A DNA stretch of 21,074 nt from a virus (lineage: Duplodnaviria > Heunggongvirae > Uroviricota > Caudoviricetes). The notes beneath the pieces are model-generated. The model saw nothing but the letters and a program-made list of their open reading frames with translations. It ran no database searches and was not told the DNA's origin. Location: the IMG/VR virus record IMGVR_UViG_3300000358_000077; one strand, 5' to 3'. The translations under genes were made by a program, and so were the position numbers. Below, one piece after another: positions 12,786-14,084 of this stretch. How positions within the stretch are numbered: position 1 is the first letter of the stretch; every line of letters begins with the position of its first letter.

Positions 12786-14084
12786 TTAAATTGCATCTGC
12801 AAACTCTGTGATTTTTCGCTCAAGTATGATTGATGAGTTGCTGTTGTCGATTTTTTTATTTTCATGATTACGAATAGCCAATGACTCATTAAAGTCTTTT
12901 GCGACTGCTGTCTCAATAAATTCAATTTCTGAATCAGAGTGTTTTTTAACAGCTTCTTTGATCTCATCCAGAGTAACATAGAAAAACTCTTTTCTACGAT
13001 TTACAAGATTGACTCTCTTTTTATCGAAGACATCATGTAGTTTTTTTTCTAATGATGGAGCGTCCTCCGAATAAATCATGGCATGCACATCAAAAATAAA
13101 AGGAACAGATGCATCACCAAGCTCATTTACACGGTCTTGTGGATCAAGACGTCGTGTCATGCCTATTTTATAAACATTCTCCCCAAAAGAACCTATGTTC
13201 GAAATAATATAAACATGACCTTGTTTGGTTTGTTGTGCCATGGATAATGCTCTTTGATGCTTTGATTCAGCCTGCGACAAACTCTGTTCTAGTTCGGCAA
13301 TGCGATTTTCGAGGCGCTGCTTCATGTCACCAGTAACTTTTTCCATTTCCTTTCTTGCAGCTTCAATTGCTTTTTTATAACGGCGCTCTTCTGCCTCTGC
13401 GTCTTGCATGGCCTTTTCTATTTCTCGTTGTGCACGCTCCTCCTCTCTCATTTGTGCCCTTATTTCTGCCTGTTCTTCTTTTTCTTTCTGTTTTTGCTCA
13501 CGATATTCATGGGTAAGCCACAACTCCTCAAGTTTTTTATTAAGGTATTTAGTATTTATATATATGTGATTTTGCTCGTTTAGTTTATTTATGGCCTCAA
13601 ATGCCTTTGTGATGCGTTCTTCCATTTTAGTGATATTTTTCCACGTGCAATTACTAATTGCAGCATCACATTCATTATTAAATGCTCTAGTAGTTAGCCT
13701 AATATTTCTGTCTGTCATTTTTTTACCCTCTGCTCGAGAGCCTTCAACAGTCCATTGGGTTGTGCAATATACTGCACCAGAGTGGGTTTTATCCCGCAGC
13801 ATTAATTTCTGTTCATCCCTGATGGATTTTATTTTGTTTTTAAATTGCTCTGAATCTTCAAAATTAAAATGAGGTTCGTAAAATCCTAGTTCGGCTAGTT
13901 CAACATCTTCTGAATAAATAGAAATTTGCTTTACTAGCTTATCATATATTTCTTTCTTCTCTTTATAAGTTCTTCTTAGTTCTTGGATTTGTTTATTGAT
14001 ACCATCCATTTTTTCAATGGTGTTTGTTAGTTCATTATTGGCATTTTCTTTTACTTTTGGGACTCTTCTTTTATAATGGAGCAT
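12786..14084 (-). CDS. Coiled-coil protein with C-terminal T5orf172 / GIY-YIG-like domain (DUF4041-like architecture), 432 aa
   Basis: C-terminal segment GHVYIISNIGSFGENVYKIGMTRRLDPQDRVNELGDASVPFIFDVHAMIYSEDAPSLEKKLHDVFDKKRVNLVNRRKEFFYV fits the T5orf172 pattern. Central region is highly charged coiled coil (EEQAEIRAQMREEERAQREIEKAMQDAEAEERRYKK...). ATG at 14084..14082. Confidence 0.75.
   Translation of the reverse strand: MLHYKRRVPKVKENANNELTNTIEKMDGINKQIQELRRTYKEKKEIYDKLVKQISIYSEDVELAELGFYEPHFNFEDSEQFKNKIKSIRDEQKLMLRDKTHSGAVYCTTQWTVEGSRAEGKKMTDRNIRLTTRAFNNECDAAISNCTWKNITKMEERITKAFEAINKLNEQNHIYINTKYLNKKLEELWLTHEYREQKQKEKEEQAEIRAQMREEERAQREIEKAMQDAEAEERRYKKAIEAARKEMEKVTGDMKQRLENRIAELEQSLSQAESKHQRALSMAQQTKQGHVYIISNIGSFGENVYKIGMTRRLDPQDRVNELGDASVPFIFDVHAMIYSEDAPSLEKKLHDVFDKKRVNLVNRRKEFFYVTLDEIKEAVKKHSDSEIEFIETAVAKDFNESLAIRNHENKKIDNSNSSIILERKITEFADAI

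Follow-up and report, generated by a model that had tools for sequence, protein, structure and literature searches.

Judged by its near-identity to a characterized protein, the open reading frame (ORF) at positions 12786 to 14084 belongs to a copy of SNIPE (PD-lambda-1) carried by a prophage and is the larger of its two pieces; the antiphage system itself is already known. In the window (by which we mean the whole stretch of 21,074 nucleotides analyzed here), this copy is split by a deletion of one nucleotide that leaves the membrane anchor on one ORF and the nuclease on another. Very probably it represents a recent loss-of-function allele, from which the 432-aa ORF would yield no significant product. 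The split gene comprises the following features:

12786-14287, minus strand: whole SNIPE (PD-lambda-1) gene, 1502 nt here versus 1503 nt in intact alleles.
14051-14287, minus strand: 5' fragment, a 78-aa ORF carrying the transmembrane (TM) anchor, after which the helical N-terminal region begins (PADLOC positions 1-80).
14055-14058, minus strand: A4 run that lacks one nucleotide relative to the A5 run of intact alleles and so shifts the frame, from alignment to those alleles.
12786-14084, minus strand: flagged ORF, 432 aa with an ATG start; codons 11-432 (12786-14054) correspond to SNIPE residues 79-500.
13533-13697, minus strand: DUF4041 (PF13250), ORF aa 130-184, equal to SNIPE aa 198-252 (Pfam, E = 9.6e-20).
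13224-13553, minus strand: long charged alpha-helical linker, ORF aa about 178-287 (AlphaFold2 DSSP and charge fraction).
12942-13220, minus strand: T5orf172/MUG113 GIY-YIG-type nuclease domain, ORF aa 289-381, equal to SNIPE aa 357-449 (Pfam).
13047-13049, minus strand: codon for the catalytic residue, Glu346 in the ORF and Glu414 in SNIPE numbering (position checked; E414A experiment in PMC13190303).

An earlier, sequence-only reading had described 12786-14084 as a DUF4041-like protein with a C-terminal T5orf172/GIY-YIG-type domain and had proposed profile searches for both families, each of which was matched in Pfam. T5orf172 was found at aa 289 to 381 of the 432-aa ORF (E = 5.4e-17) and MUG113 at aa 305 to 381 (E = 1.1e-19), and the DUF4041 match at aa 130 to 184 spans the whole model (2-56 of 56), with all three scores far over the Pfam gathering thresholds. 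The motifs quoted in that reading (GHVYIISN, YKIGMT, VPF, KRVN, and EFFYV) are all present in the translation. Between the two domains, where a charged coiled coil had been proposed, the charge (43-57% D/E/K/R across aa 181-270) and a helical fold were recovered, the latter as one long helix in a single-sequence AlphaFold2 model (DSSP helices at 178-249 and 253-287; pLDDT 60-92). The SNIPE paper terms this region the "downstream alpha-helix" or linker (PMC13190303). The structure prediction that had been suggested was thus informative for the central helix only, the rest of the model being unreliable (mean pLDDT 47, pTM 0.27; pLDDT < 50 in the nuclease domain). The 432-aa ORF has no TM helix.

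The C-terminal domain holds a GIY-YIG-type motif set (G357-H-V-Y360, Y373-K-I-G376, R379/R380, E414, and N427/N430), and in an alignment G357, V359, Y360, K374, I375, G376, R379, R380, E414, N427, and N430 are invariant across six diverged homologues from prophages and phages (34-42% identity). The canonical GIY-YIG Pfam model (PF01541) did not match this domain even at E values up to 10. A sequence search of the PDB returned low-complexity helix matches alone (E of 0.05 or worse) and no solved relative, and NCBIfam gave nothing over cut-off for the repaired 500-aa protein. The placement of T5orf172/MUG113 among GIY-YIG nucleases comes from HHpred, AlphaFold3, and the E414A mutant (PMC13190303).

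The ORF at 12786-14084 had been taken for the gene itself, and this has to be corrected: it is the 3' piece only. The true gene start lies at 14287, and a premature TAA at 14051-14053 closes a 78-aa ORF that shares the first 34 nt of the 432-aa ORF in another frame, the first 10 codons of the latter (MLHYKRRVPK) being out-of-frame sequence. Upstream of the true start stands ..gtaaggaatagcacga, and upstream of ATG 14084 only ..acagagcaaga, a weak purine stretch. The 78-aa ORF encodes the TM helix LLLAIIFLLVVLVLYIAAI at aa 6 to 24 (mean Kyte-Doolittle hydropathy of 3.4), and the residues after it are charged and helix-like. When compared with the PADLOC PD-Lambda-1 model, the 78-aa ORF covers positions 1-80 and the 432-aa ORF positions 83-484; since they fall on consecutive parts of one model, the two ORFs are two halves of one protein.

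Comparison with intact alleles places the lesion precisely. The intact 1503-nt gene of Escherichia coli 2 HS-C (locus L001) differs from the 1502-nt window gene solely in CCCAAAAAG versus CCCAAAAG, and alignment of the window gene to this allele and to a second intact one (L003) showed a single indel. As the one base that turns A5 into A4 is the sole difference from L001, the 432-aa ORF is the 3' portion of a 500-aa gene broken by a frameshift. In strain 2 HS-C, the product is annotated as a single 500-aa protein (WP_001516217.1), to which the repaired window protein is exactly identical. The frameshift falls at codon 78, in the A5 run, and the anchored product ends after 78 aa; the membrane anchor and the nuclease, which share one polypeptide in L001, do not do so in the window allele. 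RefSeq, in a genome identical to the window, treats the 78-aa ORF as a separate "hypothetical protein" (WP_109545430.1). The sequence-only reading missed both the N-terminal TM anchor, which is central to the mechanism, and its separation by the frameshift.

The repaired protein is 98.8% identical to PD-lambda-1 (PhiR26_1/ECOR26) across all 500 aa, differing at 6 of the 500 residues (Q77L, K120R, I480S, L489P, I493T, and T494P), which bears out the tie to antiphage defense that had been drawn from domain architecture. At the nucleotide level, the PhiR26_1 gene annotated "PD-lambda-1" is 97.6% identical to the window gene. PADLOC model PDLC03976 matched the repaired protein with an E value of 5e-198 over positions 1-484 of 491, and the nine residues that the SNIPE study mutated (E223, N250, L253, W257, E264, K305, I308, T319, and E414) are all present under the same numbers. 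PD-lambda-1 was originally sourced from ECOR26 (contig QOXL01000020, 49060-50562, 1503 nt; Vassallo et al. 2022, PMC9519451 supplement). The HHpred table for that protein gives DUF4041 at 197-252 and T5orf172 at 357-448 (PMC9519451 supplement), and these positions equal those of the window domains after a 68-residue offset is added. Current nomenclature follows the same identification: a newer RefSeq name for the gene is "DUF4041 / SNIPE associated domain-containing protein," and PF13250 (DUF4041) is labelled "SNIPE" in precomputed Pfam labels.

The deletion is a real allele of single recent origin that circulates in a lineage. A 61-nt probe over the site matched 124 complete E. coli genomes with the gene; 3 of these (23AR0806, HH45, and OZ547223) have the deletion, and the extra base is present in the other 121. 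Exact copies of both split products recur in a collection of 15 billion proteins: 145 contigs carry the 78-aa one (listed in 368 blocks of the collection's index) and 127 carry the 432-aa one, the contigs coming from NCBI, ENA, JGI, and Logan assemblies. For comparison, two intact alleles checked in the same way were on 210 and at least 1000 contigs. Four independently assembled loci with the deletion, including a metagenome contig, are the same as the window over 1502 nt. With 0 differences among the five loci, no further mutation was seen in the frameshifted gene, and there was no sign of relaxed selection either way.

Could the missing base be a sequencing or assembly error, with the gene intact in the source strain? 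The changed base does fall in a homopolymer, and the window is draft-like, with four N runs of 60-76 nt (1450-1525, 9400-9473, 15670-15729, and 19977-20049). In the identical complete genome, 5, 8, and 2 nt stand in their place, and the sequences flanking the third run share a 12-nt overlap; the runs resemble scaffold joins or masked sequence rather than biology, and the window is therefore a scaffolded or masked draft. However, an A4/A5 run is too short for a common Illumina error, and the same allele recurs in the three complete genomes and across the four assembly sources, with its split products on 127-145 contigs. On this population evidence we rejected the error explanation, which we consider extremely improbable.

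Other forms of damage to the gene were also seen. In one locus (L005, 6204-8030), the same frameshift is accompanied by an IS1 insertion in the SNIPE gene and a fragmented HD gene. IS1-broken SNIPE copies occur in several other E. coli genomes, and the SNIPE protein cluster includes N-terminally shortened "DUF4041 proteins" of 373-447 aa. Together, the IS1 copies and the shortened proteins suggest recurrent inactivation or start-codon misannotation.

The sequence-only reading held that the mechanism of this architecture was not characterized, a statement now out of date: Saxton et al. (Nature 2026, PMC13190303) renamed PD-lambda-1 SNIPE and published its mechanism. SNIPE is a single-pass inner-membrane protein with a periplasmic N terminus and cytoplasmic DUF4041 and nuclease domains, located constitutively at the membrane in an auto-inhibited state (PMC13190303). 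It cleaves the DNA of lambda and other siphoviruses during injection, with ManYZ and the tape measure protein setting its position; phage adsorption is unchanged, 32P-labelled lambda DNA is degraded after injection in a way that depends on E414, and a resident prophage is spared on induction (PMC13190303). Proximity labelling placed SNIPE near ManYZ, the permease used by lambda for DNA entry, before infection, and near the tape measure protein gpH during infection (PMC13190303). Defense against lambda is largely ManYZ-dependent, and protection against siphoviruses also occurs independently of ManYZ (PMC13190303).

DUF4041 has been assigned both DNA binding and tape-measure-protein binding (PMC13190303). 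Its deletion abolishes defense, and mutations within it (E223K, L253H, W257R, and others) strengthen defense against Bas14; the escapers of this phage map to its tape measure protein, which is also captured by a crosslink from N250 (PMC13190303). The E414A mutant shows neither defense nor toxicity (PMC13190303). Without its TM segment, SNIPE could not be cloned under its native promoter and was highly toxic on induction, binding the nucleoid through DUF4041 and causing double-strand breaks in host DNA (PMC13190303). Self and non-self are told apart by location, not by sequence, and the DNA that is cut is solely that coming in by way of the phage's injection machinery (PMC13190303). Cleavage at the injection stage was shown for the ECOR26 protein only, and it is by near-identity that the window allele would be linked to it.

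In the window allele, translation from the native start would end after 78 aa at the premature TAA, and the DUF4041-nuclease part would be left as a downstream 432-aa ORF in a weak ribosome-binding context. Unanchored SNIPE is toxic, yet the allele is found in more than 100 assemblies, the simplest reading of which is that the cell produces no meaningful amount of the 432-aa protein. The ORF is nevertheless intact and retains its catalytic Glu, and some activity may arise by internal initiation, re-initiation, or slippage.

One alternative hypothesis gives the 432-aa ORF its own translation start, at ATG 14084 or through re-initiation past the upstream stop, and would make its product a free cytoplasmic nuclease, whether as a defense or toxic effector or as a "split SNIPE" together with the 78-aa fragment. 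All conserved nuclease residues are kept in the intact ORF, the upstream stop lies just 31 nt downstream of ATG 14084, which makes translational coupling conceivable, and 34% of SNIPE homologues have no predicted TM domain (PMC13190303). However, those homologues are proposed to have other membrane-targeting domains (PMC13190303), of which the 432-aa fragment has none, and a TM-less SNIPE that is toxic and cuts host DNA (PMC13190303) is hard to reconcile with an allele carried by well over 100 assemblies. The Shine-Dalgarno context before ATG 14084 is weak, and since one lost base is all that separates this gene from the intact one, the split does not represent an evolved architecture. We consider this hypothesis very unlikely.

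A second alternative is that the frameshift is partly suppressed, with tRNA-Lys slipping by -1 on CAA AAG UAA to give low levels of full-length SNIPE and a reduced but real defense. A direct reading of the site shows that a -1 slip at A_AAG (AAG to AAA) gives ...SQKVKE..., the exact wild-type sequence, and A_AAG is a slippage-prone tetranucleotide in E. coli. A search for stimulators of programmed frameshifting after the A run found none: there is no stimulatory RNA structure 3' of the run (minimum free energy of -6.5 kcal/mol, z = -0.56) and no suitably spaced Shine-Dalgarno-like element near the slip site. The site itself is the product of a recent random deletion, and the expected efficiency of -1 slippage is at most a few percent, making this route, too, highly doubtful.

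Taken together, an allele that is still alive, either through a little full-length SNIPE made by -1 slippage or as a two-piece SNIPE (78-aa membrane piece and 432-aa nuclease), appears highly improbable. Were it so, it would be a natural attenuated or split form of a nuclease that is lethal without its anchor and would reveal the anchoring or dosage needed to avoid autoimmunity. The preferred reading remains recent loss of function, making this copy a probable pseudogene, and the decay of L005 and the IS1-interrupted copies elsewhere fit a gene that is readily lost.

Two signals flank the gene:

14380-14408, minus strand: candidate sigma-70 promoter TTTACT-17-GATAAT, from a consensus scan, 93 nt upstream of the true ATG.
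12729-12762, minus strand: 13-bp hairpin, 24 nt past the SNIPE stop codon, from folding; no U-tract after it.

The 282 nt upstream of PD-lambda-1 that suffice for its native expression (PMC9519451 supplement) include the candidate promoter. Its assignment is tentative, as the promoter scan of the region gave 10 matches compared to 8.6 ± 3.2 in shuffled sequence, with no excess. The hairpin folds at -20.7 kcal/mol (z = -4.5; 0 of 200 shuffles folded as well) and is likely a terminator or mRNA-end structure of the SNIPE module. Homology to PhiR26_1 covers only 12724-14684, ending 5 nt past the hairpin. Rfam and tRNA scans over the whole window returned nothing. Just upstream of ybcN and overlapping its start, a 33-aa "hypothetical protein" (WP_072129709.1; 14616-14717, plus strand) sits between the candidate SNIPE promoter and the nin genes, and the stretch 14684-14700 is widely conserved in lambdoid phages.

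The window corresponds to the early and nin region of a lambdoid prophage whose integration site adjoins icd, with genes in the order int, xis, exo, bet, gam, kil, repressor, O, P, ren-like, HD gene, SNIPE, ybcN/ninB, ninE, ybcO, rusA, ylcG, Q, lysis genes, iss/bor, and terminase. The site of SNIPE is therefore the nin region of a lambdoid prophage and not a chromosomal defense island. GC content is 34.8% in SNIPE and 30.1% in the HD gene, compared to 47.7% in the rest of the window. The HD and SNIPE genes form a low-GC block (10523-14713; 33% versus 48% for the rest of the window) that lies between the ren-like gene and ybcN/ninB and is transcribed in the direction opposite to that of the replication and nin genes on either side, and such a block is typical of a moron or defense hotspot in lambdoid prophages. 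Elsewhere in the window, the integrase gene occupies positions 1-1143, beside icd, and iss, encoding the increased serum survival lipoprotein, a Bor homologue, lies at 18456-18749 (minus strand). For the antiterminator Q homologue (16187-16876, plus strand), the RefSeq annotation of the identical complete genome gives a pseudogene ("internal stop"); the window has an uninterrupted 229-aa ORF there, and gene callers elsewhere give a 229-aa Phage_antiter_Q product.

The neighbor of SNIPE, described in the sequence-only reading as a dNTPase gene, is the following:

10879-12426, minus strand: HD gene, 515 aa, SAMHD1-like.

Its product matched human SAMHD1 structures with an E value of about 4e-26 over aa 19-430 and matched dGTPase profiles weakly (PADLOC E = 9e-4; TIGR01353 at 23 bits versus a cut-off of 152). 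The 359-bp gap that had been noted is correct: it runs from the HD gene start at 12426 to the end of the 432-aa ORF, with the HD gene downstream. The proposal that the two are separate units also holds, given that about 103 of the 124 complete E. coli genomes with SNIPE, as well as phage PhiR26_1, have no HD gene beside it, and that PhiR26_1 homology ends at 12724. Conversely, the HD gene was found in 21 of 5426 complete E. coli genomes, all 21 times directly beside SNIPE. PD-lambda-1 defends as one cloned gene (PMC9519451 supplement). Since SNIPE often occurs without the HD gene and defends as a single gene, the two are separate modules, and the SAMHD1-like HD gene is an optional one. An obligate two-gene system was considered and rejected, as SNIPE works alone and usually occurs alone. 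In five of the 21 copies, the HD gene is only 91.5% identical while the adjoining SNIPE is 99.4% identical.

The discovery of how SNIPE separates self from non-self has already been published for an almost identical protein, and the window adds no new system. What it documents is a widespread natural allele in which loss of one base separates the membrane anchor from the nuclease, and this allele bears on how readily prophage defense genes are lost. It also matters for annotation: RefSeq gives two genes, and homologue sets can pick up truncated "DUF4041 proteins without TM" as contaminants. The SAMHD1-like HD gene is an optional add-on that, in complete E. coli genomes, occurs only beside SNIPE.

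Among known systems, classical GIY-YIG nucleases (PF01541; homing endonucleases and the N-terminal domain of UvrC) share with the window protein the GxxY ... YxIG motifs, the Arg, the catalytic Glu, and the Asn; in contrast to them, the SNIPE domain has no PF01541 match and no solved structure detectable by sequence. Zorya and Kiwa, which the discussion of the SNIPE paper names as envelope-located defenses (PMC13190303), and superinfection-exclusion proteins resemble SNIPE in acting at the membrane at the genome-entry step. They are, however, unrelated proteins with multi-gene architectures, none of which joins DUF4041 with GIY-YIG, and no sequence relation of the window protein to Zorya, Kiwa, or superinfection-exclusion proteins was found. 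Closer are the diverged DUF4041-T5orf172 proteins of temperate phages (ES18 gp19, which is annotated as a possible moron, Streptococcus EJ-1 ORF3, Clostridium CDMH1 gp42, and Corynebacterium Poushou gp33). At 34-42% identity, these share with SNIPE the DUF4041 domain, the helix, and a nuclease with the invariant GIY-YIG-type residues. Most have an N-terminal hydrophobic segment, but their N-terminal regions hardly align with that of SNIPE, and Poushou gp33 lacks the region. The closest system is SNIPE/PD-lambda-1 of ECOR26 itself, with which the window gene shares the order of TM segment, DUF4041, helix, and GIY-YIG domain, the catalytic E414, the DUF4041 residues, and a lambdoid-prophage location with ren on one side and ninB/ybcN on the other. 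Unlike the ECOR26 gene, the window gene is split by a 1-nt deletion into ORFs of 78 and 432 aa, and unlike PhiR26_1, the window prophage has a SAMHD1-like HD gene inserted beside SNIPE.
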